Translations under genes and position numbers: made by a program
In this document: piece after piece, positions 6,062 to 26,968 of the stretch
Position numbering within the stretch: position 1 is the stretch's first letter
Layout: every line of letters starts with the position of its first letter
The notes under the pieces: generated by a model
Databases searched by the model: none
What the model was told of the DNA's origin: nothing
Seen by the model: only the letters and a program-made list of their open reading frames with translations
NCBI GenBank assembly: GCA_000004985.1
Contig: GG738897.1
Direction: 5' to 3' (one strand)
Source of the DNA: Naegleria gruberi
Taxonomy: Eukaryota
Length of the DNA: 64,000 bases

Positions 6062-6098
6062 TTCACTACCATTATTACTCACACAATAACATTTAATA

Positions 6099-8233
6099 TT
6101 ACAATGATTTTTGCATCTTGTTAAGAGTTTCGTCCAATTTACAAGCAGCAGAAATAAGAGAAATGAAAGTGAACGCTTGTGGGAAATTTCCAAGTGCAGA
6201 ACCATTGAAACTCATTTCCTCCGAGTATAAATTCAAGTGATTTCCATAGGTAATCATTTGTTCAAGCATCATTCTACCTTCCTGAAGGAGATCCTTCGAT
6301 TCACCATAACTACATGCTCTAGCAATTGATTCAATCAACCAGAAAGTACACAAATTGAAGGTTCCCTCCTCTCCTCCACTAAACCCATCATCAGTTTTTT
6401 CAACCAGATATCTGTAGACAAGACTAGAGCTCACTAATCCATTTTCTTCGGGCGGCTTATTGATTGCCTTAATGGTATTGACTACGAGAGTATCGGATGG
6501 ACTCAGGAAGGAAACTAATGGAATAATCAAAGTGGAAGCATCAAGTGTATCAGATCCGTAGAAACTTGTGAAGGATTCAAGTTCTCTATTGTAACCCTTT
6601 TCGATTACTTGTTCGAATATTTGATTTCTGACTTTAATCCATTTGTCAACATCCGCTGGGAAAGATCTGGATTGTGCAATTTTTATAGCTCTATCCAAAC
6701 AAACCCATGTCATGATTCTACTGTAAACAAAATGTTGTCTTCCACCTCTAACTTCCCAAACACCCTCTGCCAAATGTCATTTCTATTGAAATTCACAAAA
6801 AACTTACCATCTTTTTCATCCCAATTATTACAAACCCAATTTGTAATAAATCTCAAATGCTTCCAAAAGTCATAAGAAATTGAATTCCCATACTTGTCAT
6901 AAATATACATTGAATCCATCAATTCACCATAAATATCCAATTGCAATTGATCATAGGCTCCATTTCCAATTCTAACAGGTTTAGAATTCATATAACCAGA
7001 CAAGTGATCAATAGTTCTCTCAATCAACTCATGTTCTCCATCAATACTGTACATGACCTGAAGTGGGGGTGGAGAACCCTTCTCATCTGATTGTTTGTAC
7101 TTTAAATTCATTTCTGATATTCTAGCTTCCAGATATTTCACAAATTTAGTTGCTTCCTCCATGAAACCAATGCTCATGAAACTGTAGAGTGTGAAGGAGG
7201 CATCTCTAATCCAAGTGAATCTGTAATCCCAATTTCTCACCCCACCAATGCCTTCAGGAAGTGATGTGGAGGCAGCTGCTAGAATGGCACCTGTCTTTTC
7301 ATAGGTTAAAAGCTTGAGAGCTAGTGCACTTCTTTTCACTTGTTCTCTCCATCTGCCTTTATAGGTACATTTTTGAAGCCAATCATGCCAATAATCGAGA
7401 GTTTCATTGAGCATTTCTTCACCATATTGAGTAATTGTCTTGGAACCAAAGATGGATGATAGTTCTTGCTCTGGACAAGTCAAAGCATCGTCGAATGTAC
7501 CAAATACGAAAGTTACACTTTCATCTTCCTCAATGGTAAATTCGCATTCAACACAATTACCAGTCATTGAATCAACGTATGGATCCATCATACACATGGA
7601 TTGTCTTCTGACAGTTGGGGATAGAGTATTCGATTGAGTATTTACACCATTCACAATTGGAATGATTGGTAAAACTGGAATAATCTTGAGAATTGGCTTA
7701 CTACAATACAATGTAGCGTGTTCACAATTGATACTACTCTCTGGAATGTTCAATGGATTCATTGGATTATAAAATGGTTTAAAGAATGCTTTTTTACCAT
7801 GAGCTCCAATTTTACATTCATGCAAATCACTTGCATAATTAAAGGATGGACAGCAACTAACCTTAAATGTCATGGATCCATGGATACAGTTAACTTTTCT
7901 AATAAGAAAGTTTGTACAAGGCCTCTTTTCAGAAACTGGCATAAAATCAATCAATTCACCAATTCCATGCTTGGACATGAATCTTGTAATGAGAATATTT
8001 GTATCAGGCCAATAATGTTGTTTAGTTTTTGTGTAATTCATAGCACGAATTGAGAAACTTCCACCCTTTCTACAATCGAGAATTCGTCCAAAAACACTTG
8101 AAGAATTGAATTGTGGATAACACATCCAGTCAATTGTGCCTTCGGTTCCAACCAATGCACAAGTTTCCATATTTCCAATCATTCCATGAGAATCTATTGG
8201 AAGATAATCGATTCGTTGTGCTGGAGAGGACAT
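6099..8233 (-). CDS. Glycoside hydrolase family 15 (bacterial/archaeal-type glucoamylase / glucodextranase / trehalase-like), 2 exons: 6808..8233 and 6099..6766; intron 6767..6807 (41 nt)
   Basis: N-terminus IDYLPIDSHGMIGNMETCALVGTEGTIDWMCYPQFNSSSVFGRILDCRKGG is the GH15 N-domain signature (Y..IGD..T.ALV...GSIDW.C.PRFDS.S.F). Splicing GATG|GTAAGT...GGCAG|AG joins ...[35 protein letters not shown], the conserved GH15 W.EPDEG.WE.RG...FTYSK.M.WVALDRA block. Unspliced reading hits a stop. Confidence 0.8.
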
Positions 8234-9206: not shown

Positions 9207-9392
9207 TATTTAAAGGTCAAACGGTGAAATAATAAGGCTGTTATCTAACGAAAACCTGTCGCAATTTAGTAAGCTATGGGTATGTTATTAATCAACTCAT
9301 TTCAATTAATTTTCATCAAACCAAAATTTCAATCACCACTAAAGTCAAATATTTTTTATAAATAAATTTAAAAAAAGTTAGCGCTAAAAAAA

Positions 9393-11637
9393 ATGAGTGA
9401 CTCTGAATCAACGGCTTCGTCATCCAATATGATGGTGGATGAACAAACATCATCATCAACACGAAACGGAGATGAACAATCTGATAAGATGAAAGAGTTG
9501 GTCATTAAATATTTACAACAACAAGGATATCACCGATCATTGAAAGCCTTGGAGGAAGAAGCTATTGTCGGATCATCTTCACTGCCAGAATATGCAGCAG
9601 TTTTGGAAAGGGAAAGAATGATACGATCATCAGGTAGGTTTTGTAGTACAATAGTAATATAATGTTGTTATTAGGAGATTCTTTGAATAGTTTTCTAAGT
9701 GAAGCACCAAGTGGAAAGGGATTTCTTCAAGCCTATCAATCTCTCACAGATTGGGTATTCTCCTCTCTGGAAATCTATAAGGTATGTGTTGTATTATGGA
9801 CAGTCAATAATATTGAATATCATAATAATATTAGAATGAATTGATTCAAGTATTGTATCCTGTCTTTGTCCATTGTTATTTGGAATTAGTAAGCAAAAAT
9901 CATTCTGAGGAAGCTAGAAAATTCTTGAACAAGTACAAGACACAACATTCACATTTTCACTATGATGACATTTTAACACTTCAAAGTTTACAAACTCCTG
10001 AAATTGTAAATCAAAATGAATTTTCTAAAAGATTATTGTCACACAAATTTATAATCAGATTAAGTGAAGCTAGTTTTCACTTATTAATGAAGTTCTTACA
10101 AGACTCTAGTGAACTAAGACTTTTATCTATTCTCAATAGATTTGTTAATTTTAAAACATACAAAGGACAACCTAGCTTACAAGCACCAGCAATGATTGAT
10201 GGAATTCTTCTAATGGATCATGATATTAAAAGCCAACAACAAAAAAAGAAAAGAAAATCTGAGGATGTGGAAGGATCGGATGATGATGACTCTGAGGATG
10301 ATGACGACGAATTTGAAGCTATTTTCGGAAGAAATAAGAAAATTTCATGGGAAGTTGAAAACAGAGAAAAGGAGGAAGCATTAGCTGCCACTGCTGTTGT
10401 TCAACCTACTGCACCAACAGCACCTCAACCTAGTAGAAGAGGAAGAAAGAAAAAAGGAGCAGCCACAGCTCAACAAGAAATTAAGAAATTGATTGATGTT
10501 GCTAAGGAACAGGTTCCACCTTGTCCTTCTGCATGTTTCTATACACTTTTCAATTGTAATAATAATTTAAATGCTGTGGAAATCGGAACAAACTTTGAAC
10601 ACAAACCATCCAACTATTTTGTTGATGATGGCGATTTTGCTCCTCAATATAACCTAAGAAATGGTCCTGTTATTGCAGCAGGTTTTGCTGATTCTACTAT
10701 TAAATGTTGGAATTGGAGAACTCTTAATGGTACCATCCCTAATACTAAATCATATCAGAGAAATTATGAAAGTATTAATCTTGAAGATAATGAAAATAGA
10801 GAATGTCAATATGATACATTAATTGGTCACTCAGGACCAGTTTACTCCCTATCATTCAATTCTGATCAACAATGGCTTTTATCCTCCAGTGAAGATTGTA
10901 CAGTACGTTTGTGGAATGTCAATAATGCAGAATCTGTTGTTGTGTATAAGGGACATCAATATGCTGTTTGGAATGTTAGTTTCAGCCCAACAGATTACAT
11001 GTTTGCAACAGCATCACATGATCGTACAGCAAGACTTTGGGTTACTGATAGAGTTACTCCTGTCAGAGTTTTTGCTGGACATTTAGCTGATGTTGAATGT
11101 GTCAAATTCCATCCAAACTGTAATTATGTTGCAACTGGTTCTAGTGATAAGACTGTTCGTTTGTGGGATGTACAAACTGGAGAATGTATGAGAATGTTCA
11201 TAGGTCATCATGGGTCTATTAACACCTTAGCATTTTCACATGATGGTAGATATTGTGCCTCTGCAGGTGATGATGGTCAAGTTCTAGTTTGGGATATTGG
11301 ATCTGGAAAGATTGCTTACAAATTTATTGGACATACCAAACCAGTGTGGTCTCTTGACTTTAATAGAAATGACACTTTCCTTGCTTCAGCTTCATTAGAT
11401 TCAACTGTTAGAGTTTGGTCAATGTTTGACACTATTGATACAGGTTCTGTTGAGGGAAGTCAATCTGCTGCTCAAATCCTCAAAGAAAAGAAACTTGAAT
11501 TGGACAAGCACAAGATTATTTCAAAAGAACCATACAAGACTTACTATTCGAAACAAACACCAGTTTATTCACTCAAGTTCACACAACAAGACTTTATGGT
11601 GGCAGGTGGTGTTTTCACTCCAAATTTAACTTTGTAA
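9393..11637 (+). CDS. TAF5: TFIID subunit TAF5 (LisH + TAF5-NTD2 + WD40 propeller), 3 exons: 9393..9633, 9675..9781, 9835..11637
   Basis: Exon 1 carries the LisH motif (MKELVIKYLQQQGYHRSLKALEEEA). Exon 2/3 junction gives SLTDWVFSSLEIYK|NELIQVLYPVFVHCYLELV, the TAF5 NTD2 signature. C-terminus has WD repeats (GHSGPVYSLSFNSD, RLWNV, GHQYAVWNVSFSP, DRTARLW, GHLADVECVKFHPN, DKTVRLWDV, GHHGSINTLAFSHDG, VLVWDI, GHTKPVWSLDF, STVRVWS). Introns 9634..9674 (GTAGGT..TATTAG) and 9782..9834 (GTATGT..ATTAG). Confidence 0.85.
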
Positions 11638-11689
11638 AAGCAAAACTATTATAAATTATTATTATTAAATTTAATTTATTTAAAAAGTG

Positions 11690-11930
11690 GAATACTGTGA
11701 AAAAAGGGAAGGAAATTTGATTTCAAAAAGAAGGAGGGAATATTGTGTGGTAGTCTAATCTCCTATAAATTGTTTGTTGTTGTTATTATTACTCTAATAA
11801 ATAGGAGAGAGAAAATAGTGAAATGAGAAAGAATGGAAGAGAAAGTGTGTGTGGAAAAAGAAAGTGAACAAAGATGAGCACTTCGGGGAGAGAGAAGGTT
11901 ATGTAGTGTTGTTGATAGATGGTTTCATAT
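11690..11930 (+). repeat. Polypurine (A+G-rich) tract in the 3' intergenic region between convergent TAF5 and the 11952..12347 gene
   Basis: About 240 nt that is almost entirely purine on the plus strand (gggaaggaaatttgatttcaaaaagaaggagggaa...gagagagaaaatagtgaaatgagaaagaatggaagagaaagtgtgtgtggaaaaagaaagtgaacaaagatgagcacttcggggagagagaaggttatg). Confidence 0.6.
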
Positions 11931-11951
11931 GATTATTGAAGCCATCACAAA

Positions 11952-12347
11952 TTATTGATTCTTACAACCACCAGCATTTGCTTTTCCTTCTTCCTTTGGT
12001 GCTGTCCTAGAGAGTTTCTTTCCTTCAATAACATCCTGAGCAGTACAAACAATTCCATCAAATTGACCAACAGCTACACCATGTCGAGCCAATTCAATAG
12101 CTTTTTCAGCTCCCTTTTCCTTGTTAAATTGTATCACAGCAGAGCTGAAAACGAGGGCATTAGCTTTGATCACATCAATAGAACTAATTCCTCCACTAAC
12201 TTTCTCAAAGAATTCTCGAATTTGTTTTTCTTCAGCAACGAAAGGCAGTTCAAATACTACAATTGTTCGTTTCAAAAGTTTTTCACCTTCCTTATCGTTG
12301 AGCATTTCTTCAAGTTTTTGTTTTATAAGATTTCTTGATGTAGACAT
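11952..12347 (-). CDS. Small hypothetical protein, possibly an RRM-like fold (RNP2-like TIVVFELPF, RNP1-like SAVIQFNK)
   Basis: 131-aa ORF with start ATG and ordinary composition. The opposite-strand ORFs 11955..12338 and 12121..12375 are low-complexity and rejected. Weak pattern match only. Confidence 0.35.
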   Translation of the reverse strand: MSTSRNLIKQKLEEMLNDKEGEKLLKRTIVVFELPFVAEEKQIREFFEKVSGGISSIDVIKANALVFSSAVIQFNKEKGAEKAIELARHGVAVGQFDGIVCTAQDVIEGKKLSRTAPKEEGKANAGGCKNQ

Positions 12348-12618
12348 TTTCTATATATTTGTTTTAATTATTTGATGATGAAATCCTTGTCCAAGCTGTT
12401 TATCGTTGTGTGTGTTCTTCTCGGGTTGATGATGGCAGCTTGACAGCAATTATTTTTTTTAAATTGTGATGGATGCTTGACAAGTGAAAAAAGCAGCAGC
12501 GATGTTAACCAAAGGTGAGAAGACGGAATAACGTTTCTCATATTCACAAAATATGTAAATAATAGTTATTATTCAGTTAGTATTCTTTAAAATTGGATAA
12601 TTATTCTATTGTACTAGT

Positions 12619-13071
12619 TTACCACTTTTCATTGAGTAATTTGTAATATTCTTTCAGTTCCTCGTCATCCTCTGAAATATTATCATTTGATGATTTAAAA
12701 TTCAGACTCTTCAAAGTTCTTGAAGGCAAAGAAGGCTTTTGAATAGTTGTAGATGATACAGTATATTGAGTCGATTCCCACTGAAACCCTTCTCCTTTCT
12801 TTATGGTTGATGTTGAAGGAGGAAGCCTTTCATTATCAAATGAATCATTCCTTGATAGAGAAGGTTCTTGTTTTGAAGGCTTAGTTGATTTGAATTCATT
12901 ATCCTTGATCGTTGTTTTGTTTTGTTTTTTCCTCTCCTTTCGTGAGTTGATTTGATTTCTTTGTTTACGAGTCGATGAAGGAACACCTAATGTAGGACTC
13001 TTTGGAGCCTTCTTCTTCAAGACGATCATCTTTGATTGAGGTGAAACTCTTACTGTATGAGTGGTGGTCAT
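12619..13071 (-). CDS. Hypothetical basic, Ser/Lys-rich protein (150 aa)
   Basis: Uninterrupted ORF with ATG; K/R/S-rich (KKKAPKSP, RKERKKQNK); acidic C-terminal tail. No recognisable domain. Confidence 0.3.
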   Translation of the reverse strand: MTTTHTVRVSPQSKMIVLKKKAPKSPTLGVPSSTRKQRNQINSRKERKKQNKTTIKDNEFKSTKPSKQEPSLSRNDSFDNERLPPSTSTIKKGEGFQWESTQYTVSSTTIQKPSLPSRTLKSLNFKSSNDNISEDDEELKEYYKLLNEKW

Positions 13072-13306
13072 AGTGAGTTGTTTTTTTTAAATTTTATTTG
13101 TAGACTTAATCATTCAATTTGGCGCCTAATTTCTTTCCACAAGAATAAGAGTTCCCAATGCTGATGATGTAATAATTATCTTCCTATTGCATCAATATTC
13201 AAAAGGAATTACTTGTTAGAAGAAACAAATATGATTTCTTGGAAGGCTTGTGAAGTTATATCCCCGTAAGCTAGCCGTTACATTTTAAAATTTAAAAAAA
13301 AGGCAA

Positions 13307-16153
13307 ATGTTCAGATCATCACCAAGTAGTCCCTCCGAAACTCAAACTCTTGTCGCTTGTTCTTCTCCTCTCTCATTGATGGGCTTTTCTGATGATGAAG
13401 AGGATGAACAGCCAAAACATGAACTTAACATCCACACACCAATTACACCTCAAATTAAAAACATTCCTTCTCATAATAATTTAATGAATTCTCCACTAAA
13501 GTCTCCTCCGAATACTAATACATCAAATGGTAAATTATTACTCAATCTTCAACAAGGTAGTACTTCCATCACTAATAAGAATCCATTCAATATGAGCAAT
13601 ACAATGGATAGTAGTGATGATGATTTATTGGTTGATATTGATTCTCCACTATTAGAATTTGGACAAGACAATGTATTTAATAACAACACCACCACCTCTA
13701 CAGCAATTAATAGAAACAACAATTCAGGAAAGTCTTCAAGTGATTCATCATCTTCGGAGAAGACTTCCCAAGGAGGCTCCTCTGATACATCATCAAGTTC
13801 TTCAAGTAGTAGTAAGAAATCTTCATCACTTAAAGGCAGCAATAGCAGTAATAGTATTGCAAGTACGAGTAATACTAATAATAATGGAGGATCAACTCTT
13901 ACTATTAAGCCAAAGGCTAAATCCACAAAAGAAAAGAAAGAAAAGAAAGAAAAGAAAGAAACTAAATCTCCAAAGAAAAAGAAGGAAACTCCAAAAAAGA
14001 AAGTCGAATTCAAGAAGGTGGAAAGTAGTTTCAGTGACAGTAGTCCATCACCCCAAAGAGAATCAGAAAGTTCTAAGAAGAGAAAGAAATCCACTCCTGA
14101 AGAGGTTCCTAAAAAGTGGAAAAAGAAGAAAGTGGAAGAAGTTCCTCCTCTAGCTCAACCACCTCCATCAGTTGGAGGAAAGAAAAGTCTCTGTCGACAA
14201 TTTACTGACATGATTACAGAAATTAAAAAGACAGCAAAGAAAAAGAAGTATCATGATGATTTGGATGTGAGTGAGGATGATTCAGATGATTTGATGGATA
14301 TTTCATCAAGTGAGGAGTTGCTATCTTCTGATTCAGAGGATGAAGTGGTTGTGAGAAAGAGAAAGAAATTAACTCCAAAGAAAAAGAAGCTCTTTGCAAA
14401 TATGCGTTTTGTAATTTCAAATTCTCTTATTGAAAGTGATAAAGAAAAACTGGAAAAGAAAATTAAGGAAGAAAATGGAACAATTATAAGACAATTATCA
14501 TCTAGTAATTTGGATAGTTGTGAAATTGGTAAAACTGTACTCATTTCAGAAAAGACATCAACAAAACCAACCTATTTAATTGCACTATTACTCGATATTC
14601 CAATACTGAAGAAGGATTGGATATTCGATTCAATTACCGAGAAGAAACTCATAACAGATGAGAAGACTATACAGAAGTATCTATTAGATAGAGGTACAAC
14701 TAGTTCTAGATTGGATCCATCTACTCTTCATGTTGAAAAACAAACATTCAATTCATCAATGATGTGCTGTAAAAAGGAAAATAGAATTTTCTATGGTTGT
14801 CGAGTGAAGATTTTGGGAAATGAAAAAGAATTGTCCAGTTGGATCAGTATATTGGTTGCTGGTGGAGCCATCATAGATAATGAATTGACTACACAAACAA
14901 GTGAAGGATCGAATTTCATTTTTGTAAAAGATTCGAATAAGCTTACTGAAGAAGATGTGGAGAAGGCAACATCTATGAAGCTTCCAATACTTGATGGAGA
15001 AAGTTTGCTTCAAATTGTAATTACACTAGAAAGAAAATTCTCAGAAGAGCAAGTTTTAAACTATGCAGAGCTTTCGCAGATAACTAGAAAGATGCAACCA
15101 CTTCCTTCGATCAATCTATTGGAAATGTCAATGCCACTAATTGAATTGCCAGATGAAACTGATGTTATCAACAATATGGATCTCATAGATAAGATTGAGT
15201 TTGGTAACTTTTTTAATATTAATGAGAAAGATTCCATTCAAAAAACCTCATTCACAAGAGTTACAACTTGTAGTGGTGATACTATATGTGAAAAGTATTA
15301 CATTCATGATATGGTTGTTTTGGATTATTTGAATGAGGAGTTAATTTGTAGAATAGATAGTTTATACTATTGTGGAAATATTCCAACACTAAGGGCTACC
15401 CAATATTATTCGAATCCAAAACGAAAGCTTCAAAAAACTGAAAGAGTAGTCAATTGTTCCGTAGAGCATATCAAGTACAAGCTTAATATTTGTGGACCTA
15501 CCCGTCACAAATCCCAACACTTTTATTCGAATCAACGTTTCAACACCAAGACACAGGTCATTTCTGATATTTTGGAAGATATCAAAACAGTTGGAGAAAC
15601 TTGTCTTGGCTTGGAACAATGTAAAGAGCACAAATTCAAATGGCTACCACCTTTCAAAACCAATATTTTCAATGACCACATTATGGTTAGCACACTCAAA
15701 TGGAGGAAGCAATTATTCCAACAGGGAGACTTTGTTCTCATCAAACAAAAACAATCTGATTTACAAATTGTTGGATGCATAACAGAGATGAGGGAGAATG
15801 ATACCAATATTTTCGCCATTCCATCTTCCAGAAAGTTTCCAATTTCACAGGGATCACTCTTTGTGGAAATATTCGAAAAGCTCGACCAAGATTTTTGTGT
15901 ACTCTCCAAAAACTCCAACGTGATAACAACAACAACTGATAACCACCAACAAGGAAACACTGTTGTCAGTCAATTGTGTGTGAATAACAGTAATAATCAA
16001 CAGTACAAGACAACTCACCAAGTTTCAAGATTGGATGTTGAATCTATTCAGCACATCCAATCATTTGTAGCCATTAATGGTCAATTAATTGGAGACAATT
16101 CAATTAACACGCTAGTCCAACAATACTCTAACAATCTGATCATCATCCACTAG
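13307..16153 (+). CDS. Tandem BRCT-domain protein with long low-complexity Ser/Lys/Glu N-terminus (948 aa)
   Basis: Two BRCT-like modules: KKLFANMRFVISNSLIESDKEKLEKKIKEENGTII...KPTYLIALLLDIPILKKDWIFDSI, and IFYGCRVKILGNEKELSSWISILVAGGAIID...NFIFVKDSNKLTEEDVEKATSMKLPILDGESLLQIVI. Antisense ORFs 13549..14094 and 13659..14153 lie in the repetitive (AAG/GAA)n segment and are rejected. Confidence 0.5.
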   Translation: MFRSSPSSPSETQTLVACSSPLSLMGFSDDEEDEQPKHELNIHTPITPQIKNIPSHNNLMNSPLKSPPNTNTSNGKLLLNLQQGSTSITNKNPFNMSNTMDSSDDDLLVDIDSPLLEFGQDNVFNNNTTTSTAINRNNNSGKSSSDSSSSEKTSQGGSSDTSSSSSSSSKKSSSLKGSNSSNSIASTSNTNNNGGSTLTIKPKAKSTKEKKEKKEKKETKSPKKKKETPKKKVEFKKVESSFSDSSPSPQRESESSKKRKKSTPEEVPKKWKKKKVEEVPPLAQPPPSVGGKKSLCRQFTDMITEIKKTAKKKKYHDDLDVSEDDSDDLMDISSSEELLSSDSEDEVVVRKRKKLTPKKKKLFANMRFVISNSLIESDKEKLEKKIKEENGTIIRQLSSSNLDSCEIGKTVLISEKTSTKPTYLIALLLDIPILKKDWIFDSITEKKLITDEKTIQKYLLDRGTTSSRLDPSTLHVEKQTFNSSMMCCKKENRIFYGCRVKILGNEKELSSWISILVAGGAIIDNELTTQTSEGSNFIFVKDSNKLTEEDVEKATSMKLPILDGESLLQIVITLERKFSEEQVLNYAELSQITRKMQPLPSINLLEMSMPLIELPDETDVINNMDLIDKIEFGNFFNINEKDSIQKTSFTRVTTCSGDTICEKYYIHDMVVLDYLNEELICRIDSLYYCGNIPTLRATQYYSNPKRKLQKTERVVNCSVEHIKYKLNICGPTRHKSQHFYSNQRFNTKTQVISDILEDIKTVGETCLGLEQCKEHKFKWLPPFKTNIFNDHIMVSTLKWRKQLFQQGDFVLIKQKQSDLQIVGCITEMRENDTNIFAIPSSRKFPISQGSLFVEIFEKLDQDFCVLSKNSNVITTTTDNHQQGNTVVSQLCVNNSNNQQYKTTHQVSRLDVESIQHIQSFVAINGQLIGDNSINTLVQQYSNNLIIIH

Positions 16154-16213: not shown

Positions 16214-19200
16214 ATGAGCAATTCCAACCCGAGAGGAGGAGGATATGGTGAGTCAGCATCATCATCTCTGGGTGGTGGTGGTCAAGTAAAGGAATCTAAA
16301 CGATATACGATGGATTTTAAAAAACTTGGTCTCAATCCCATGAATTTGAATAAATCATCAAATAATAGCAAGACAAATAATTTAGGAGGAGCTAACAGTT
16401 TATTACAACAAATAATTAATGATGATAAGAATTATCATTTGCAACAAGTGGGTGAAGTGATTGAAGGACAAACTACGGAGGGAATTAATGATGTGTTTTT
16501 TAATGTACCTCCAGGTAAATTTAAAGTACAAGTTTCGAATACGACTGGAACTGGATTGAGAATATTTTCATCTGTAGTGTTGAGAGCTGATGTTTCATGT
16601 CAATCATCAGTGACATCAACTATTCAAAATGATAATGATCAATTACATAATTCAGAAAATATAGAAAAAGGTAATTCATGGAGTACTCTTGTTACAACAC
16701 CAATGGATTCACAACAATCTACAATTAGAATTACTTTATTTTGTGAACCACCTGATGCTAAATGTAGTTACAAAATTCAAGTTCATCAAATTTTTAATAT
16801 TGTACATACTAAAGGTTTCGAATTGGGAAAAGGTGAGGAAAATGATTACAAATTTGATTTGAGTCCTGGTCAATATCACATATTTGTTCAATCATTGAAT
16901 TCTCAACCATTTGCTTGTAGTTATCAATTAGCCAATTCTACAAGTTATTCAGAGGATAATATCAAAGATTTAAAGATTCTTCCACATCCAATTGTGGTCA
17001 TCATTGAAGATGATCAACAACAGAGTACCAATTTACTTGATGTGAAAGTTGCATCAAAAACACAAAAAGCAGTCAAGGCAAAATTATTAATTTTACAATC
17101 TATTAGTGAATTTGAATTGAAAAGAACTCTGGATAGTGAACAGAGAGTTACAATTAATGAGTTTAAATCATTAATTGATGATAGTTACAGAGAAAGAAAT
17201 GTAGAAACAATGCAAGGATTGGAATTAATGTTGACAGATTTATATGAAAAGAAGGGGTCAAGATTTCAACCTATTCATGCCTATGGGAAGGCAATGAAAA
17301 CTCATTTGGAAGAATCTTTGGAATTGGAAAAACAGTTAAAAGAAATCACTCATGTTGATAATAATTTGTTAAAATCAAATTTGTTGGACAATTTGATTAA
17401 ACAATTTAAGAATTTGAAATACTTGACAGAGAAAAACAAACTTGACACTAAGGTTTTGATCAATCTTTCTGAATCAGAGCAAAAAGTAATCAAATTCAAG
17501 GAAATTGTAAAGAAAATCAATGAATGGAAACCAAAATTGAAGGAAGTCCTGCACAATCCAGACAGCAAAGTTCTCCAGGAAACACTTGATCAAATTAGTG
17601 ACGATACACTTTTACAAGATGATTCGTGCTCTGAAATTATCAATAACATGCTTGAAGAACCGTCAATTTTGCTGAAACGACTTCAAGCAGTTGACAAGAC
17701 CAAAAAGAAAATCAAAAAGTTCGTTGCTGAGGAAAATGAAACTGCTCTTCAATCACTTAAACCTGTCATTGAAGATTATGACAAGGTAGAGAGAAAATAC
17801 ATTGAAAAGGAGTATAATCTCATTCTCCAAACATTGGAAAAGATTAGTTTGAGAAAGAATGCAGAAAAGAAATTGAGAGAAGCCATTTTAACAAAACAAA
17901 CTCACAGAATTGGTGCTGATATCAAAGCTTTTGAACCATATCTGAAAGGAACTGATCTACTCAGAGATGCCAAGCAAATATTGGAAGATTTACTTGACAA
18001 TGGTGATGCCGACGTTTCTAAATATTTACATGGAGCAGATGAGGTGATTGTTGCTTCTCCACCAATTCAAAAATCAACACCCAAACAACCAGAACCTAAA
18101 AATCCATCGAGTCCAGTAGTGAAAATTCCACTCACCAACAAGGAAGATTTACTGAATAGTTTACTTGCTGAGGATGATGGCTTACCGAGTGCCAGAGGAG
18201 AAAATACAGAACCACTGAAAGCAACAACAATTAATTCGCCAACCACTTCAACAAGTGCTGTTGAACCATCTACTGCCTCCTCTGTTAAATCGCCACAGGA
18301 GGAACAAGTTCAAACTGAAAGGGAAAAGAAGGATGCCTTGTTGAATTCCATTCTTGCAGATGATGATGGATATGAAGAACAAGTGACCAATATTCAACAA
18401 CCATCAGCAGCTGTTGTTGCAACAAAAACGGTCAAGAAGATTCCAACCAAGATTTCAATTCCAAAAACTAAAAAGATTACAAAAAATAGTGATTCTGGTA
18501 AGATAATCAACTCTATCAGATCTCCAATGACAGATAAACAAAAGACTGGAAGTACAGATACTCAATCTGATATTAGTGAGCTTTCTGATAGTGATTACGA
18601 AATGTCAGATGATGAAGATGAAATTCCAAAACCAAAAGCTTCACTTTTAGAATCACTTGGATCAATATATAGTGATGTGTTAACAGAGGATGACAAGAAG
18701 AGTTCTGAAAATATTGCATCATCACCAATACCACTTGATATTCTTTTGAGAAAACCATCTTCAACTCCAACTGAAATACCAAAGAAGGATCAAGACTTTA
18801 CTCCAAAGAATAGCAGTCCAATCGTCAGTTCCATGTCTCCAAAGGAACAACAACCATTGCCAACCATTAAAACAAGTATTGAGAAGAAAGCAGAACAAAC
18901 AGTTACCTTCTCTCCTCAATTTCCAACTCCAAAACCTAAAAAGACAGTCTTCTCTCAAGCATCTGTTCTCCAAAATAAGAAGCAATGGCAAGATGAGTTG
19001 AAGCAGAAAGAAAACTCACTCTTGGAGAGATTTGAAAGGATGATTTCCAAACCAGTGAGTAATACATTGGATATTAACAATAAGGAAATGGTAAAACTCA
19101 TGATGAGACAACACAAAATATCAAACCATCCTCTGCTTAATCAACTTCACCAGGAAATACTCATTCTCATTAATAGCAATGGAGGCGATCCTAGAAATAA

Positions 19201-20413
19201 TGGTGTGATAACAGTCACCAAATTTGATCATTTTGTGGAACATGATATTGTGTATAGTCCAATTAATACTCAAAATGGAACACTTTCACAATATACAGCT
19301 CAATACTATGATCACTTTATCAAAATATTGGCAAGTGTTTGTTTGAATAGAACTAAAAAGAAGTTCTTTGGAATGTCAGAAAGAACATTCTACAGTATTC
19401 TATACGATTGTGTTTCTGATAACAGTTTGGTAATGATTAATGATCCATCACTGAGATATATGAATACTCATAGAATTCACTTGTTATTGGAATATTTTGA
19501 TTCAAAGAAATATGCCCAGAAATATCAACAACAATATCAACAATCCAAGGATATTAGTTTAATGGAATTCTTGTTGGATATTGGTGAATTGGTTGATATT
19601 TTCAATTTTATTTGTAAATATTGTAATAATTACTTATCAACAGTTTATGATCCAACATCAATCATGGTAGATAGTACTCATAGAGATGAATTCCTCTCAA
19701 TTGTTGAATTATTGAATCAGATGAACTTTTGTTTAGGATACACTCCAAAAAAACTTGATGTTTATGCAATTAATATTCATTTGAAAGGAAGTGTTGAAAA
19801 TGTACTTCAACTCACAAGAGCAACAGAGGATATTGCTAAATTTGTTGGATCTAAGAAGAATCTCAAAGTTGATGATCTAGTTCACATATCAAAGTTTGCC
19901 AGATGTACTCTGTGTCCAATTCTTGAACGAATTTTCAAGCAGGGAATTAAATTCCAATCAGTAATGAAAGGATACTATCACATATGGAGTGTAATTCTTG
20001 AAATGTTTTATTATTTACAATATCAATTGCCTGATTATGTAAAGAGTGGGTTGTCGACTGCCATTGCCCAACAGGAATTAATTGACACTTCAGGTTTGAG
20101 TAATGAACAATTACACTACTTTGATTTTGTTCATTACACACTCCTTATTTCTAAATCCATTACTAGAAACGAGCTGCTTTTCGATAGGCATTTACATTTT
20201 AGAACTTGGTTGTGTTTGGCATTGAATCATCACAGATTATTCAATTTTATTAATTTAATATTCAAGAATCAAGCTATACTGAAGAGATATTACAATATTG
20301 AAGCATCTATATTAGATCCTCACGTTCAAGAATTAATATTATCATGTGTGAACACACTGTGTGAAATTGATTTCCAAATCAAATTGGACCATCCTGAAAT
20401 GTATAATTTTTAA
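16214..20413 (+). CDS. Large hypothetical protein (1399 aa), coiled-coil middle, conserved-looking globular C-terminal region; no domain recognised
   Basis: Single uninterrupted ORF with ATG at 16214. Heptad-like K/E-rich segment at about 17000-17900; Ser/Pro/Thr-rich linker at about 18050-18950. Stop at 20411-20413 lies 1 nt from the Spo11 stop on the other strand. Confidence 0.5.
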   Translation: MSNSNPRGGGYGESASSSLGGGGQVKESKRYTMDFKKLGLNPMNLNKSSNNSKTNNLGGANSLLQQIINDDKNYHLQQVGEVIEGQTTEGINDVFFNVPPGKFKVQVSNTTGTGLRIFSSVVLRADVSCQSSVTSTIQNDNDQLHNSENIEKGNSWSTLVTTPMDSQQSTIRITLFCEPPDAKCSYKIQVHQIFNIVHTKGFELGKGEENDYKFDLSPGQYHIFVQSLNSQPFACSYQLANSTSYSEDNIKDLKILPHPIVVIIEDDQQQSTNLLDVKVASKTQKAVKAKLLILQSISEFELKRTLDSEQRVTINEFKSLIDDSYRERNVETMQGLELMLTDLYEKKGSRFQPIHAYGKAMKTHLEESLELEKQLKEITHVDNNLLKSNLLDNLIKQFKNLKYLTEKNKLDTKVLINLSESEQKVIKFKEIVKKINEWKPKLKEVLHNPDSKVLQETLDQISDDTLLQDDSCSEIINNMLEEPSILLKRLQAVDKTKKKIKKFVAEENETALQSLKPVIEDYDKVERKYIEKEYNLILQTLEKISLRKNAEKKLREAILTKQTHRIGADIKAFEPYLKGTDLLRDAKQILEDLLDNGDADVSKYLHGADEVIVASPPIQKSTPKQPEPKNPSSPVVKIPLTNKEDLLNSLLAEDDGLPSARGENTEPLKATTINSPTTSTSAVEPSTASSVKSPQEEQVQTEREKKDALLNSILADDDGYEEQVTNIQQPSAAVVATKTVKKIPTKISIPKTKKITKNSDSGKIINSIRSPMTDKQKTGSTDTQSDISELSDSDYEMSDDEDEIPKPKASLLESLGSIYSDVLTEDDKKSSENIASSPIPLDILLRKPSSTPTEIPKKDQDFTPKNSSPIVSSMSPKEQQPLPTIKTSIEKKAEQTVTFSPQFPTPKPKKTVFSQASVLQNKKQWQDELKQKENSLLERFERMISKPVSNTLDINNKEMVKLMMRQHKISNHPLLNQLHQEILILINSNGGDPRNNGVITVTKFDHFVEHDIVYSPINTQNGTLSQYTAQYYDHFIKILASVCLNRTKKKFFGMSERTFYSILYDCVSDNSLVMINDPSLRYMNTHRIHLLLEYFDSKKYAQKYQQQYQQSKDISLMEFLLDIGELVDIFNFICKYCNNYLSTVYDPTSIMVDSTHRDEFLSIVELLNQMNFCLGYTPKKLDVYAINIHLKGSVENVLQLTRATEDIAKFVGSKKNLKVDDLVHISKFARCTLCPILERIFKQGIKFQSVMKGYYHIWSVILEMFYYLQYQLPDYVKSGLSTAIAQQELIDTSGLSNEQLHYFDFVHYTLLISKSITRNELLFDRHLHFRTWLCLALNHHRLFNFINLIFKNQAILKRYYNIEASILDPHVQELILSCVNTLCEIDFQIKLDHPEMYNF

Positions 20414-20414
20414 T

Positions 20415-21641
20415 TTATTTAACAATATTAAATTTTGAAATTTTCTTAGCTAGATATGTTGATAAAAAGTTTAATCCCTTCACTGTAATGATTATCTCAA
20501 TTTCGAATTTTCTTAATTTCATACTTTGCAATTCATCTCTGACATGATCTAGTTCTTTTCTTTTGATGGAATCCTTGATATGACGATCAATAAGATTAAT
20601 TTCTCTTTGAGATATTGGCTGATTGTAATAATGTGGAATGTCCTTAACATCTTCGTAATTCATTCCAAGCCATTGAAGTCTATCTTTGAGTGCTGACTCT
20701 TGTTGAACTTTGTGTCTACTCATTTCAACACTTCCATACTTGTATGTACTCATAATTTGATATCCAAAAATATTGAAATCACATAAAGCATATAATCTAG
20801 CATTTGGAAATCTAGTAGAAACATGTTTCACAACATAACGAGTCACAATCGATGGATATCCACATCCAGTAATCAACAAACAATTCCTAACAAGTTTGAA
20901 AATCTTATCTTCCACAAGTCTTCTAAATATTGCATCTTTCTCAATAATTAACACAGTGTCCACATTTCCAAAATAATCAATTGAGGGAAAATCTCCTGGA
21001 ATGCTTTCCACTGAGGCCTGTTTGTTTCCATTAAGCGATAACAAGCTATTTCCTCTTCCATCATTGCTGTAAATAAATCCCTTACTCATGCAAATGATAT
21101 TCAATAAGGATCTGTCAACCTTCAACACATCACCAACAGTTGACAAACATCTATTACATTGAATTTGATCCCTGAATGTAGTAACATTCATATAAAACAA
21201 TTCTCTCTGAGTAATCTTCTTCCTACAATTCAACAGTAAATGAACATCCTTCATCAACAGCCAAACAAGATGATTCTTCTTAAGATGATTATTTTTCAAA
21301 CTCTTCTTCTCAAATGTTCCACTTTTTGATTTAATTATTTGATGAAGCCTTTCTCCATTAGACTGATTCGAATCCCTTGTTCCGAATGAATAATTTAAAA
21401 TCAAATCTTGTCCATTCTTTTCATCATTCTCAATCAATTTAAATAGAAACTCCAAAACATATGATTCAATCAATGATATAATCTCCTCATTCGGTAGTAA
21501 ATAGTGAATCTCACACATCTTTTCAATATCAAACAAGTTTAATTCATCTTCCATATCATCTTCATTCTCCTCCAAAACAAGCCTTGTTGCATTTTCAGAC
21601 AAGCCTTGTTCCTCATCCTCAGCATCGTTCTCATGATTCAT
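20415..21641 (-). CDS. SPO11: Spo11 / topoisomerase VI subunit A homologue (meiotic double-strand-break transesterase), intronless
   Basis: Toprim block CLLITGCGYPSIVTRYVVKHVSTRFPNARLYALCDFNIFGYQIMSTYKYGS matches Spo11/TopVIA (KGYPD.ATR.FL..L......PIY.LVD.DP.G..I...YKYGS). Upstream 5Y-CAP-like block RELFYMNVTTFRDQIQCNRCLSTVGDVLKVDRSLLNIICMSKGFIY contains the catalytic Tyr region (R..YY.....F..Q......I.D...ML...R..LNI.A..KG). Confidence 0.85.
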   Translation of the reverse strand: MNHENDAEDEEQGLSENATRLVLEENEDDMEDELNLFDIEKMCEIHYLLPNEEIISLIESYVLEFLFKLIENDEKNGQDLILNYSFGTRDSNQSNGERLHQIIKSKSGTFEKKSLKNNHLKKNHLVWLLMKDVHLLLNCRKKITQRELFYMNVTTFRDQIQCNRCLSTVGDVLKVDRSLLNIICMSKGFIYSNDGRGNSLLSLNGNKQASVESIPGDFPSIDYFGNVDTVLIIEKDAIFRRLVEDKIFKLVRNCLLITGCGYPSIVTRYVVKHVSTRFPNARLYALCDFNIFGYQIMSTYKYGSVEMSRHKVQQESALKDRLQWLGMNYEDVKDIPHYYNQPISQREINLIDRHIKDSIKRKELDHVRDELQSMKLRKFEIEIIITVKGLNFLSTYLAKKISKFNIVK

Positions 21642-21810
21642 TGTAATACAATTTACTCTAAATCTCTTTCAATGTTGTTTTATTTTTTTTAAAGCCTAAA
21701 ATTAATCAATTAATAATGAATTTGAATGAATTAATCGATAAATTAATGAGTGGTGCATTGTTTTTGTACATTAAGAGTAATCTAACTTCTCCTATTGGCA
21801 GCTTTAATAT

Positions 21811-22479: not shown

Positions 22480-22573
22480 TTTTTTGATTTTGTTTTCTAA
22501 AAATAAATTTTCATCAATTTTTTGATATTCTTTTTAGGACCTTCTTCGGAATTGGTTTTCGGAATCAGAAAAA
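22480..22573. promoter_or_regulatory. 94-nt divergent promoter spacer between Hikeshi (minus) and the Vma22-like gene (plus)
   Basis: Start codons at 22479 (minus) and 22574 (plus). The spacer is A/T-rich (ttttttgattttgttttctaaaaataaattttcatcaattttttgatattctttttagg). Confidence 0.45.
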
Positions 22574-23233: not shown

Positions 23234-23303
23234 ATTCTCATTCCCATCAATTAACTAAAGCCATACTTCCATCATTACTGCCACCAAGTAGATGTTGTGT
23301 TCA

Positions 23304-24383: not shown

Positions 24384-25443
24384 ATGACCAAAGTTGTTCG
24401 AACAACTCCTATTGATAGATCCAAGAGAACAGCTGTTAAAGGAGATGTTGTATCAGAAGTGAATATTATTCACGGAAAGAGAAAACGTCGATTGAGTAAT
24501 AACTCGTTTACTGATGATTATATTGTTTCAAGTCCTAAAACACCAAAGAAGAATAAGAAAAAGACTAAAAAGACACAGCAGAAAAAGAAGGAATTATCGG
24601 AATCCTCAGAGGATGATGATGAACAAGCTGAAGAATCAGAATCAGGAGATGAAATTATTATTCCTCTCTCTGGTAATAGAAATAAGTATAAAATTGTGGA
24701 TGAAGATGATGAGGAAGAGGAAATGGAATTAAAACAAGAACCTGAGGAAGAAATGTATTCATTATTTAGTCAGGAATTGAAAAGAACTGAAAGAAAGAAG
24801 AAACAATCTTCTTCATCTGCTCCTAAAGAATTATCAACCAAAGTTAAGACTGAAGAACCAGCTATTGCTGTTTGTGATTGTAGTGAATTTGGACCTATTC
24901 CTGTGGATCCATATAAATTCTTTTCGAAAAAGATTGTAGATAATGTAAAACGTTTGGGTGGTGAATTTCCAGAATTTTACGATTCCAGAATTCCAATTGT
25001 TTATAATGATGTCAAGTTTTTCTCACCTGATTCTTTGAGATTATTTACCCTAATTAAGTGGGGAGGAAAGCAATGTACGTTTTATTCTATTATTTAGATT
25101 TATTATAACTTTAATTCAAGTCAAGAGTTCACTAGTTTCTGAAATTATTGGGCTGAAAATTGAATTGTTTGTTATTGAGGAAATTAAGAACTTTGAATTT
25201 ATTCTATCTTATGTTGATCGTATTGTATTAATTGGTGATGCTGCTGATTGTGTTTTGGGTGTAGATGCTTGCTACCCAATCTGTGTTAATGAGGAACTTG
25301 GAGATTTTTGGATCTATATCATAATAGATGATAAACGAAAAGAAGCACCTCATAAACTGCGTTTATCAACTCTACTGGAAAGTCTTACAATAGATGAAAC
25401 TGATTATGATGTGCTAGTTGATGTTGAATTCACTCAAAAATAA
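24384..25443 (+). CDS. Hypothetical acidic protein, 2 exons: 24384..25074 and 25121..25443 (intron 25075..25120, GTACGT..TTCAAG)
   Basis: ORFs 24369..25097 and 25165..25443 join in frame via a 46-nt GT-AG intron (...LIKWGGKQ|F|KSSLVSEIIGLKIELFVIEEIKNFEF...). First ATG at 24384 (MTKVVRT). Stop is 1 nt from the PRP3 stop on the other strand. Confidence 0.4.
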
Positions 25444-25444
25444 A

Positions 25445-26968
25445 TTAAACTGTATTACTATTCTTATCATTGGCAAAAACATCGAAATAATGGATACATC
25501 CATGGTCATTCAGATAATTTTTGATGGATTCCTCATCCTCAAACTTTTGGAATTTAAAGTATTGGAAATTTCTTTTTAAAACAGTTCCTTTCCATAACAT
25601 TCTGGCACTAGGTTGGTTGTCTGATTGTGTTGGAATGGTATTTTCTGATTGTACACCTTCAACTTTTGACCAGTCAATCTTATTTAATATTACATCGTCG
25701 TATTTCTTTAAAAACTTTTTACCTCCTTCAGCAATAAGTAAAATTCTATCTTTGTCTCTTGTTTGGGATGGATATGATAGGACAGCTCCTGTTATACCCT
25801 TTTCTTTGGCAGTATTAATCTTGAATCTGGTTTGAGGATGAGCAATATTTGGTATAGAATAGAGAATTGTAATGAGTTCTGATTCGGCATCTTCAGTAAT
25901 CTTTCTAATTTTCTTTTCTTTCCGTTGCTCCTTGGTTAACTTTTCATTGTTATTTCTTTCTTCGTGAGCTTGCATTCTTTCCTCAATTTCCTTCTTAATT
26001 TTCATTTCCAATTCAGTTGCATCCTGACCAGAAGCCAATAGAGCTTTCATGTAATTTCCCATATTGGCCTTTGGTGGTGGAGGAGGTGTCAATCCAAGAG
26101 CAATCTTTCTTTGATTTTCCTTTTCACGTTGAATTCTTTGTTGTGTTCTCATCTTCTTTTGTTCTTTCTTTGTTAACATGAGAGGTAATGGACCAGCATC
26201 AACCTTCTTCTTGAGTGGATCAACAATGATTGGGTGTTCCACAAAATCATGTTTCACTAATTTCTCCTTGATAGAATACACTTCATTTTCTGCATCAAAA
26301 TCTCTCTGATAAATATCTACATGGTTATTAACATTTTCATCTGCTTTTTTACAACTCTTAAGAATCTTTTTATCCCACCAGAAAGCATCTGGAATAGTTG
26401 ATTCAAAATCCTCAATTCTTCTACAACCTAGCATCATGTGTAATTCTCCAATTTCTAATTCTTCTTGAATTAATCGAAGTCTTTCCTTTTCTTTTTCAAT
26501 TTTTTCTTGTTCCTTTCGTTCTTTTTCCAATTGTTCTTTCAAAAGTGCTCTTTGTCTTTCTTCCTCTTCCAATTCTCTCATCATTTTGGCTTTCTCAATA
26601 AATTCGCCTTGTTCATGGAAAGCTAATCCTCTATTTCTTTTCTTTCTTTCAGCCTTTGGAACACTTAAAGTAGAATCATAAAAATCTAATTTCTTAATAT
26701 TTGGTGGCTTTTCAATTTTCAAAATATTTTCCTTCTTTTGTTTTCTATTTTGATTAATCTTTGCACTGCTGACAGTCCTTTTAGATTGTATAATTTTACC
26801 ATTAGCATCCACCAAATTACCAAACTCATCCATAATTAATGATCCATAATCTACTTCCTCTTCCTTTTGTTCAGCACCATCCCGACCATCATTTTCCTGT
26901 TGTTGCTGATGTTCTGCTCGTTGTTGTTGCGTCGAAGATGATGATGATTGCTTTCTATTTAAAAACAT
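25445..26968 (-). CDS. PRP3: U4/U6 snRNP protein Prp3 (PRPF3) homologue
   Basis: Central PRP3 domain (MLTKKEQKKMRTQQRIQREKENQRKIALGL.PPPPPKANMGNYMKALLASGQDATELE...NEKLTKEQRKEKKIRKITED) plus C-terminal DUF1115-like block (RILLIAEGGKKFLKKYDDVILNKIDW...MLWKGTVLKRNFQYFKFQKFEDEESIKNYLNDHGCIHYFD). Confidence 0.8.
   Translation of the reverse strand: MFLNRKQSSSSSTQQQRAEHQQQQENDGRDGAEQKEEEVDYGSLIMDEFGNLVDANGKIIQSKRTVSSAKINQNRKQKKENILKIEKPPNIKKLDFYDSTLSVPKAERKKRNRGLAFHEQGEFIEKAKMMRELEEEERQRALLKEQLEKERKEQEKIEKEKERLRLIQEELEIGELHMMLGCRRIEDFESTIPDAFWWDKKILKSCKKADENVNNHVDIYQRDFDAENEVYSIKEKLVKHDFVEHPIIVDPLKKKVDAGPLPLMLTKKEQKKMRTQQRIQREKENQRKIALGLTPPPPPKANMGNYMKALLASGQDATELEMKIKKEIEERMQAHEERNNNEKLTKEQRKEKKIRKITEDAESELITILYSIPNIAHPQTRFKINTAKEKGITGAVLSYPSQTRDKDRILLIAEGGKKFLKKYDDVILNKIDWSKVEGVQSENTIPTQSDNQPSARMLWKGTVLKRNFQYFKFQKFEDEESIKNYLNDHGCIHYFDVFANDKNSNTV

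Follow-up and report, generated by a model that had tools for sequence, protein, structure and literature searches.

A probable SPO11-2-type gene of Naegleria gruberi ends one nucleotide from a convergent RUN-domain gene

The Spo11 gene and its gene model

The window analysed here is a stretch of 64,000 nucleotides of Naegleria gruberi DNA. On its minus strand, an ORF at 20415..21641 extends from ATG to TAA and encodes 408 aa with zero internal stops; the chance of an open frame of 408 codons at the local base composition is ∼2e-15. The ORF itself, the Pfam domains, and the fold match of its product all point to the CDS of a Spo11 protein, probably of the SPO11-2 type. The deduced product was identical to XP_002672555.1 at 373 of 374 residues, apart from 34 aa that the public model lacks. 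Judged by this match, the ORF is evidently NAEGRDRAFT_81222 (XP_002672555.1, UniProt D2VU03) of N. gruberi NEG-M, read without the intron predicted there. The gene is already catalogued and is one of two SPO11-family genes previously reported for N. gruberi; the literature gives two SPO11 orthogroups for this organism, plus DMC1, HOP2, MND1, MSH4, and MSH5. The first-pass annotation had suggested searching for further meiotic genes, and SPO11, HOP2, MND1, and DMC1 are indeed listed in the literature for NEG-M. It had also argued, correctly, against assigning the window to Dictyostelium discoideum: five proteins encoded in the window are identical to GenBank entries of N. gruberi NEG-M, and dictyostelids lack Spo11 according to the literature. 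The AT-rich island of the window (GC 2–4% at 57–59 kb) is partly an assembly gap of 1624 Ns, and a comparison of one ORF with IMG/VR yielded no relative that would indicate viral origin.

In the public model of 374 aa, an in-frame segment of 102 nt (20483..20584, minus strand; GTCATA...ACAG) is spliced out. It encodes aa 353–386, which form part of the C-terminal helices of the Toprim domain, and was kept in N. fowleri, N. lovaniensis, Willaertia, plants, animals, and fungi in the alignment. When the segment was omitted, the Toprim Pfam score dropped from 106.5 to 86.9 bits and profile coverage from 170 to 118 positions. The AF2 model had a pLDDT of 87–94 over aa 341–380, and the Spo11 orthologues are single ORFs of 1200 nt. 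Because the segment encodes conserved Toprim helices, the intronless 408-aa ORF is, on the grounds of alignment and modelling, the better Spo11 model and the intron of the public model apparently an annotation error. The earlier description of the gene as intronless thus stands, contrary to the public model. Its description as intact also agrees with the full 408-aa reading frame; ORFs were likewise intact in N. fowleri, N. lovaniensis, a fourth Naegleria-like sequence, and Willaertia. In the sister species, the gene is under purifying selection (dN/dS = 0.13, N. fowleri versus N. lovaniensis).

The predicted protein and its placement in the family

The N-terminal 45 aa of the protein are acidic and, in the AF2 model, disordered, as is an insert at aa 83–115; between them lies a conserved helix (aa 51–70; conserved residues I58, E59, and L69). 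The 5Y-CAP (TP6A_N) winged-helix region spans aa 123–182 (21096..21275, minus strand; Pfam PF04406, E 1.8e-14). It contains, within the motif QRELFY, the predicted catalytic Tyr150 (codon TAT, 21192–21194, minus strand), as assigned by alignment; this region aligns with the RDIFY motif of yeast, and R146 and Y150 were invariant across 38 aligned sequences. The Toprim domain follows at aa 230–401 (20439..20954, minus strand; PF21180, TOP6A-Spo11_Toprim, E 1.9e-30), with a match spanning profile positions 2–170 of 170. Within it lie E234 (codon GAG, 20940–20942, minus strand) and the motif D288-F-N290-I-F-G (20763–20780, minus strand), of which E234, D288, and G293 were invariant in the family alignment. 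The first-pass annotation had ascribed to the ORF a 5Y-CAP tyrosine region and a Toprim DxD region. Both domains are present, but a literal DxD is absent, the motif being DFNIFG. Position 290 was Asn in all Heterolobosea and all plant SPO11-2 proteins examined, and 68 of the 167 family members examined had DxN at this motif. Judged by its distribution, DxN is a subfamily variant and evidently no lesion. Metal chemistry may nonetheless be altered, with N290 replacing the second metal-binding Asp and Ile replacing the Pro that usually follows.

The core of the AF2 model was predicted with a pLDDT of 80–95, and its ten best PDB matches were all TopoVI-A or Spo11 (probability 1.00, E 3e-14 to 3e-11), after which the E-value jumped to 0.1 for the next fold match. 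Membership in the Spo11/TopVIA family, as proposed earlier, is thus supported by the TP6A_N and Toprim Pfam domains, the catalytic residues, sequence matches in the PDB, and the fold.

Among sequences outside Heterolobosea, the best matches were SPO11-2 proteins (7e-29 for plant SPO11-2, with 31% identity over 88% of the query, versus ∼1e-17 for animal and fungal SPO11), and the top representatives among the relatives were nearly all DxN, including proteins of Mesostigma and Gefionella. Phylogenetic placement, which the first-pass annotation had called for, was done by an NJ tree and by HMM comparison on a sequence set that held no named TOP6A reference. In the tree, the protein fell into the DxN (SPO11-2) half, with a bootstrap of 50/100 for the DxN split, and an HMM of the DxN clade outscored that of the DxD clade by ∼16 bits. 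Taken together, tree and profiles suggest, with moderate support, that N. gruberi Spo11 groups with the SPO11-2 branch. Arabidopsis SPO11-2, which carries the DxN motif, is needed for meiotic double-strand breaks; in plants, SPO11-2 depends on a SPO11-1 partner. Plant SPO11-2 proteins (e.g., Arabidopsis SPO11-2, Amaranthus P0006, and Camellia P0021) have the same two-domain layout and a length of ∼380–410 aa, and share with the Naegleria protein the catalytic-Tyr motif TQRELFY and the Toprim D-x-N. The named plant proteins examined had RELFY or RELYY together with DWNPAG, whereas in the Naegleria protein RELFY is combined with DFNIFG, which lacks the Pro; its acidic disordered N-terminus and disordered insert also set it apart. 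Spo11 of Saccharomyces cerevisiae (PDB 8urq/8uru) has the same fold (Foldseek probability 1.00, E ∼3e-12). In the yeast and animal proteins (SPO11-1 type), the catalytic Tyr, the Toprim Glu, and the first Asp align with those of Naegleria, but these proteins have the canonical DxD and an RDI[YF]Y motif and occupy the other half of the tree. The 5Y-CAP and Toprim folds are homologous to those of archaeal topoisomerase VI A, which provided the top structural matches (PDB 1d3y, 2zbk, 2q2e, and 9o8p).

The stop–stop junction and other convergent gene pairs

On the plus strand, a gene of 1399 aa (16214..20413) converges on Spo11. Its C-terminal RUN domain (aa 1232–1392; nt 19907–20389; Pfam RUN, E 3.7e-20) extends to within a few residues of the end of the protein. 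Its last 400 aa were 69% identical to the N. lovaniensis orthologue and aligned to ≤2 residues from the stop, and the C-terminus of Spo11 was likewise alignable with its orthologues; by these alignments, both C-termini are genuine. Orthologues of the RUN gene are syntenic in N. lovaniensis and N. fowleri. A search of a collection of 5.8 billion proteins returned no N. gruberi protein matching the RUN gene, and its exact sequence was absent from the protein collection consulted. The genes flanking it on the plus strand bear consecutive accessions (EFC39747 and EFC39748). It therefore seems that the gene set of NEG-M lacks an entry for the RUN-domain gene.

The two stops meet in the sequence TAA-T-TTA (20411..20417; context TTT TAA T TTA TTT): the TAA of the RUN gene occupies 20411–20413 on the plus strand, that of Spo11 (TTA on the plus strand) 20415–20417, and the single nucleotide 20414 separates them, exactly as first noted. 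In N. fowleri and N. lovaniensis, the two genes overlap by 6 nt (TTATAA/TTATAG). According to the public models, the spacing would be peculiar to N. gruberi (127 nt in N. lovaniensis and 450 nt in N. fowleri), but reading of the ORFs led us to reject this, since in both species the real C-terminal exon of the RUN gene, stop included, reaches 6 nt into the Spo11 CDS. Thus, as far as the ORFs tell, tail-to-tail abutment of the two genes is kept across Naegleria.

The first-pass annotation had pointed to two comparable arrangements in the window, and both were found. The stop of a hypothetical gene on the plus strand (last exon 25165..25443, first exon ∼24369–25076) lies at 25441–25443 within an AATAAA, 1 nt from the stop (25445–25447) of the minus-strand gene for the splicing factor PRP3 (25445..26968; XP_002672558.1; Pfam PRP3 and Prp3_C); the junction reads AAA TAA A TTA AAC, and the C-terminus encoded by the last exon of the partner matches N. 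lovaniensis right up to the last residues (E 5e-22). In the three Naegleria species, the spacers of this pair are 1, 9, and 41 nt. The near-abutment involves an acyltransferase gene (plus strand, ending at 6061) and a GH15/trehalase-like gene (minus strand, ending at 6099), which together cover 4823..8233 and are separated by 37 nt. Over the whole window, convergent spacers measured 1, 1, 22, 37, 47, 49, and 70 nt, plus three of ∼300 nt. Hence, a 1-nt spacing is not unique to Spo11 and the RUN gene: the PRP3 pair equals it, and five further pairs are ≤70 nt apart. Both 1-nt junctions contain the 12-mer AAATAAATTAAA, of which the window has four copies compared with 0.4 expected. The idea of a dedicated junction element was dropped, as the other two copies lie away from gene junctions, and the 12-mer was taken to be AT-rich sequence that includes stop and poly(A) hexamers.

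An AATAAA hexamer covers the Spo11 stop (AA-TAA-A; 20414..20419, minus strand) and is a candidate dual-use stop/poly(A) signal; an ATTAAA lies downstream of this stop (20409–20414, minus strand). The candidate poly(A) signal of the RUN gene is another ATTAAA (20427..20432, plus strand), 13 nt past its stop and in antisense of the last Spo11 codons. Direct RNA-seq of N. gruberi has given a median 3′-UTR of 39 nt; transcripts with dual-use AAUAAA stop codons have a median 3′-UTR of 22 nt, with cleavage and polyadenylation ∼15–20 nt downstream (PMC11529991). The AAUAAA over the Spo11 stop and that over the stop of the hypothetical gene, both candidate signals, resemble the dual-use stops described, with ultrashort 3′-UTRs, for N. 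gruberi and Giardia (PMC11529991). At the Spo11/RUN junction, geometry dictates that any 3′-UTR longer than 1 nt would overlap. On this basis and that of the published N. gruberi 3′-UTR lengths, the 3′-UTRs of Spo11 and the RUN gene would each reach beyond the UTR of the partner into its coding end. Antisense overlap of 3′-ends is to be expected genome-wide in N. gruberi, because convergent spacers are tiny, smaller than twice the median 3′-UTR of 39 nt. Convergent yeast genes also have overlapping 3′-UTRs (PMC3900390), but the Naegleria coding regions, which abut or overlap by 6 nt, are packed more tightly than typical yeast pairs. A literature search found no Naegleria-specific reports of convergent or antisense overlap, and the main text of Herman et al (2021) mentions neither Spo11 nor UTRs.

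A compact locus for a putative meiotic break enzyme

With a probability of about 0.85, the locus is best explained as a SPO11-2-type meiotic gene with a single exon, whose stop abuts that of its neighbor through genome compaction. By homology, the protein would be the catalytic subunit of a TopoVI-like complex that makes meiotic double-strand breaks. The residue attacking the DNA backbone would be Tyr150, and Mg2+ would be bound in the Toprim domain by E234, D288, and N290. A TopoVIB-like partner would dock on the N-terminal helix (aa 51–70), and a heterodimer would presumably form with the second SPO11 paralogue. As no one has ever observed sex in Naegleria, we infer the meiotic role from homology. 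The stops would lie 1 nt apart because of extreme genome compaction, involving no device specific to Spo11; convergent genes of Naegleria are typically 0–70 nt apart. If Spo11 and the RUN gene were transcribed in the same cell, the 3′-end of each mRNA would be antisense to the last codons of the other over a few tens of nucleotides.

The protein could instead belong, as its A subunit, to a true topoisomerase VI (SPO11-3/TOP6A type) that includes a TopoVIB ATPase and serves the DNA metabolism of vegetative cells. TopoVI passes strands at the expense of ATP and has a GHKL protein as its B subunit; the Naegleria protein is likened to it by sequence and fold. Its best PDB sequence match was TopoVI-A of Sulfolobus (1.4e-11), marginally ahead of yeast Spo11 (3.1e-10), the best fold matches were TopoVI-A of M. 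mazei, and the UniRef name is "DNA topoisomerase (ATP-hydrolyzing)." However, such differences in PDB and fold matches do not discriminate, whereas the closest sequences are SPO11-2 orthologues with the same DxN. Moreover, according to Brinkmeier et al, excavates lack BIN4 and RHL1, two proteins that strictly co-occur with TopoVI A and B; N. gruberi is among the species in the SPO11 and TOPOVIBL alignments of these authors. This makes a vegetative topoisomerase very improbable. Even less credence is due to the gene being a decaying, non-functional relic of lost sexuality, despite the fact that sex is unobserved and that the Toprim motif has Asn for its second Asp and lacks the usual Pro: DxN is normal in the SPO11-2 branch, the remaining catalytic residues are invariant, and neither the dN/dS of 0.13 nor the intact ORFs in N. 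gruberi and its four relatives fit decay.

A different reading concerns the junction rather than the protein: its conservation might mark a functional cis-antisense switch that represses Spo11 outside a cryptic sexual stage. Transcription running from the RUN gene into the end of Spo11, or from Spo11 into the RUN gene, would act by transcriptional interference or by dsRNA and RNAi, for which Naegleria encodes components. In yeasts, meiotic genes are known to be under antisense control. The abutment has been kept in three Naegleria species, at +1 nt in N. gruberi and at −6 nt in both N. fowleri and N. lovaniensis, although the C-terminal tails of both proteins carry indels. Around the junction, the latter two species are 0.92–0.93 identical in nucleotides, slightly above the Spo11 average of 0.79. 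Yet, other 60-nt windows inside the genes likewise reach 0.93, and no extra nucleotide or synonymous-site conservation was found at the junction in this comparison beyond a slight rise that is no outlier. The unrelated PRP3/hypothetical pair is equally tight, and because the gene block BRCT-RUN-Spo11-Hikeshi-Vma22-...-PRP3 is syntenic as a whole, the conservation is not specific to Spo11 and the RUN gene. An antisense switch is thus very unlikely. Slightly less probable still is a selected module, held at +1 to −6 nt, that gates the meiotic break enzyme, with vegetative read-through from the RUN gene or 3′-end overlap silencing Spo11 until a cryptic sexual stage; if true, it would provide a handle to induce or detect meiosis where sex is unseen. 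Spo11 may be silent in vegetative cells, and an abutment persisting over deep divergence in the genus could reflect more than compaction.

Under the preferred reading, a meiotic gene in a compacted genome, the finding is real but ordinary, already known, and of small direct significance: overlapping convergent 3′-ends are a known outcome of compact genomes with ultrashort UTRs. What the locus adds concerns annotation, namely a 408-aa Spo11 model in place of the public 374-aa version, which lacks part of the Toprim domain, a 1399-aa RUN-domain gene apparently omitted from the NEG-M annotation, and a clear attribution of the window to N. gruberi. All three should be useful to those who draw on these gene models in phylogeny, in modelling the structure of the TopoVI-like complex, or in expression analysis. 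N. gruberi Spo11 itself is among the genes on which the published "meiotic toolkit" case for cryptic sex in Naegleria is built.

Gene model and setting of Spo11

The Spo11 gene (20415..21641, minus strand) was read as a 408-aa ORF without interruption; at about 30% GC, the chance probability of an open frame of 408 codons is near 2e-15. Pfam assigned two domains: TP6A_N (E 1.8e-14) over aa 123-182, and, over aa 230-401, the Toprim domain of Spo11/TopoVI-A (E 1.9e-30), with all 170 profile positions covered. A PDB sequence search led to Sulfolobus and Methanocaldococcus TopoVI-A and to yeast Spo11. The AlphaFold2 model had a core pLDDT of 80-95, with disordered stretches at aa 1-47, 83-115, and 306-314, and its ten top PDB structure matches were TopoVI-A or Spo11 throughout (E 3e-14 to 3e-11), beyond which E jumped to 0.1. 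In alignments that took in Heterolobosea, plants, one red alga, animals, and fungi, R146 and Y150 (QRELFY), E234 (IIEKD), D288, and G293 were invariant. Purifying selection is indicated by a comparison of the N. lovaniensis and N. fowleri genes (dN/dS 0.13).

The top database match of the ORF was N. gruberi XP_002672555.1 (EFC39811.1; UniProt D2VU03; NAEGRDRAFT_81222), a 374-aa protein differing solely in that aa 353-386 are missing and V387 is read as L, which corresponds to an in-frame predicted intron of 102 nt (20483-20584, minus strand; GTCATA...ACAG). Several observations contradict this intron. The excised segment carries the conserved EL..M..K.EIE Toprim helices present in all homologues and is folded confidently by AlphaFold2; without it, the Toprim match scores 86.9 bits and spans 118 profile positions, compared with 106.5 bits and 170 positions for the full ORF. 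Moreover, the Spo11 genes of N. fowleri and N. lovaniensis are one 1200-nt ORF each, and a genuine nearby Naegleria intron opens with GTAAGT rather than GTCATA. The intron is thus probably a gene-prediction artefact, and the gene is intact and intronless, as the first-pass annotation had described it.

The neighbouring Hikeshi, Vma22, PRP3, and BRCT proteins each had an identical counterpart among the NEG-M entries of a 326,913-bp scaffold. Together with the Spo11 match, this bears out the earlier argument against Dictyostelium; Spo11 has been reported missing in dictyostelids. The AT-rich island at 49900-64000 has 20.6% GC without Ns, compared with 31.9% in the remaining window. Two assembly gaps (1624 Ns at 57153-58776 and 381 at 61545-61925) account for an apparent GC minimum of 2-4% and for a spurious "ORF" of 1081-1090 aa across 55.5-58.8 kb. 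The island contains an RCC1-like and protein-kinase ORF (51571-54201, minus strand), a fragment with C5 DNA-methyltransferase motif I (near 56.9-57.1 kb), and an EF-hand protein (62822-63277, minus strand). Several further long ORFs there had no Pfam match, and no viral relative was found in IMG/VR for the one ORF searched.

Convergent gene ends

The convergent partner of Spo11 is a 1399-aa ORF (16214..20413, plus strand) with a RUN domain extending to aa 1392 (Pfam). Syntenic orthologues are present in N. lovaniensis and N. fowleri, the last 400 aa being 69% identical to the N. lovaniensis orthologue and aligned up to two residues from the stop. Because no N. gruberi protein in a database of 5.8 billion sequences matched it, and because the flanking plus-strand genes bear consecutive GenBank numbers (EFC39747 and EFC39748), the NEG-M annotation seems to lack the RUN gene. 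The public N. lovaniensis model (9328..13727 of the PYSW02000041.1 locus) falls short of the conserved C-terminus ending at 9195. In the N. fowleri locus, a 66-nt GTAAGT...TTAG intron (9585-9650) was missed by the gene caller, leaving the last RUN exon (9195-9584) outside the gene model.

At the junction (...AAT TTT TAA T TTA TTT AAC...), the stops of RUN (20411-20413, plus strand) and Spo11 (20415-20417, minus strand) are one nucleotide apart. The recurrence of this arrangement proposed in the first-pass annotation was found at 25443/25445, between a hypothetical gene and PRP3 (AAA TAA A TTA AAC at 25441-25447), and nearly so at 6061/6099, where 37 nt separate the acyltransferase and GH15 genes. 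The ten convergent spacers in the window measured 1, 1, 22, 37, 47, 49, and 70 nt, and three times about 300 nt. The 12-mer AAATAAATTAAA occurs four times in the window (0.4 expected); two copies, 20409-20420 (minus strand) and 25438-25449 (plus strand), make up the two 1-nt junctions (Lys-stop, one nucleotide, partner's stop), and no gene junction lies at the other two, 11670-11681 (minus strand) and 47657-47668 (plus strand). The GH15/trehalase-like gene (6099-8233, minus strand) is divided between two ORFs that overlap but lie in different frames, 6099..6773 and 6710..8233. Their Pfam matches adjoin each other on the profile (positions 4-167 and 168-426), which implies a short intron or frameshift near 6710-6773.

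Public models place wide Spo11/RUN spacers in N. lovaniensis (127 nt) and N. fowleri (450 nt), which ORF reading refuted: the RUN ORF, with the C-terminus ...LDHQEMFVNL*, runs to locus position 9195, and Spo11 to 9200. Both strands use TTA TAA in N. fowleri and TTA TAG in N. lovaniensis, the last Leu codon of either gene being complementary to the partner's stop, so that the genes overlap by 6 nt. The two genes thus abut throughout the genus, even though both tails carry indels. When positions 13307-26968 were compared with the whole N. lovaniensis and N. fowleri loci, all three species shared the order BRCT - RUN - Spo11 - Hikeshi - Vma22 - three small genes - PRP3. In Willaertia magna, this order around Spo11 is not conserved, and Spo11 adjoins a gene for a 2397-aa helicase-RdRP fusion.

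In N. gruberi, the median 3′ UTR is 39 nt by direct RNA sequencing, and 11-13% of stop codons overlap AAUAAA ("dual-use"); UTRs after these stops have a median length of 22 nt (PMC11529991). The Spo11 stop, judged by its sequence, shares this overlap (AA-TAA-A, 20414-20419, minus strand) and is followed by ATTAAA; the hypothetical-gene stop (25441-25443, plus strand) is likewise of this type, and an ATTAAA lies 13 nt beyond the RUN stop (20427-20432, plus strand). From hexamer positions and published UTR lengths, transcripts are predicted to end at about 20393-20400 (Spo11) and 20447-20455 (RUN). The mRNAs would then be complementary over roughly 50-65 nt, each UTR running antisense to the final 5-13 codons of the other gene. 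Spo11 may be silent in vegetative cells. The one non-trivial alternative, that the conserved overlap serves as an antisense gate on Spo11, we consider very improbable: the entire gene block is syntenic, not Spo11/RUN alone, the unrelated PRP3 pair is also close-packed (spacers of 1, 9, and 41 nt across the three species), and the junction, with a surrounding nucleotide identity of 0.92-0.93, does not stand out from other stretches compared. General compaction is the simplest reading of the abutment.

Toprim variant and subfamily

The first-pass annotation had credited the ORF with 5Y-CAP and Toprim regions, which Pfam supports, and with a DxD Toprim motif, which is instead D288-F-N290 (DFNIFG). 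This motif is common to N. gruberi, N. fowleri, N. lovaniensis, a fourth Naegleria-like sequence, and Willaertia. Of the 167 family members examined, DxD was present in 98 and DxN in 68. Every named plant SPO11-2 examined shares DxN, albeit as DWNPAG, whereas animal and fungal SPO11 have DxD. Plant SPO11-2 was also the top non-heterolobosean match (7e-29; animal/fungal SPO11, about 1e-17), and the highest HMMER representatives were nearly all DxN proteins, including those of Mesostigma and the malawimonad Gefionella. In an NJ tree, Naegleria Spo11 grouped in a DxN half (plant SPO11-2, Galdieria, heteroloboseans) against a DxD half, with a bootstrap for the split of only 50/100. For each heterolobosean sequence, the score from a DxN-clade HMM was about 16 bits higher than that from a DxD-clade HMM. 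On the strength of motif, top matches, tree, and HMM preference, the Naegleria protein is assigned with moderate confidence to the SPO11-2 type, in agreement with a published report that both SPO11-1 and SPO11-2 persist in some excavates.

The N. gruberi Spo11 gene is already known. The Naegleria pangenome paper, citing the 2010 genome paper, gives two SPO11 orthogroups with one N. gruberi gene in each and also lists DMC1, HOP2 (two copies), MND1, MSH4, and MSH5; Brinkmeier et al. included N. gruberi in their SPO11 and TOPOVIBL alignments. The initial observation and interpretation were thus essentially right, yet concern a known gene, a known genome, and a generic genome feature. What is gained is a corrected Spo11 gene model, an apparently unannotated RUN-domain gene in N. 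gruberi NEG-M, and the observation that Naegleria Spo11 bears the SPO11-2 DxN variant of the Toprim motif.
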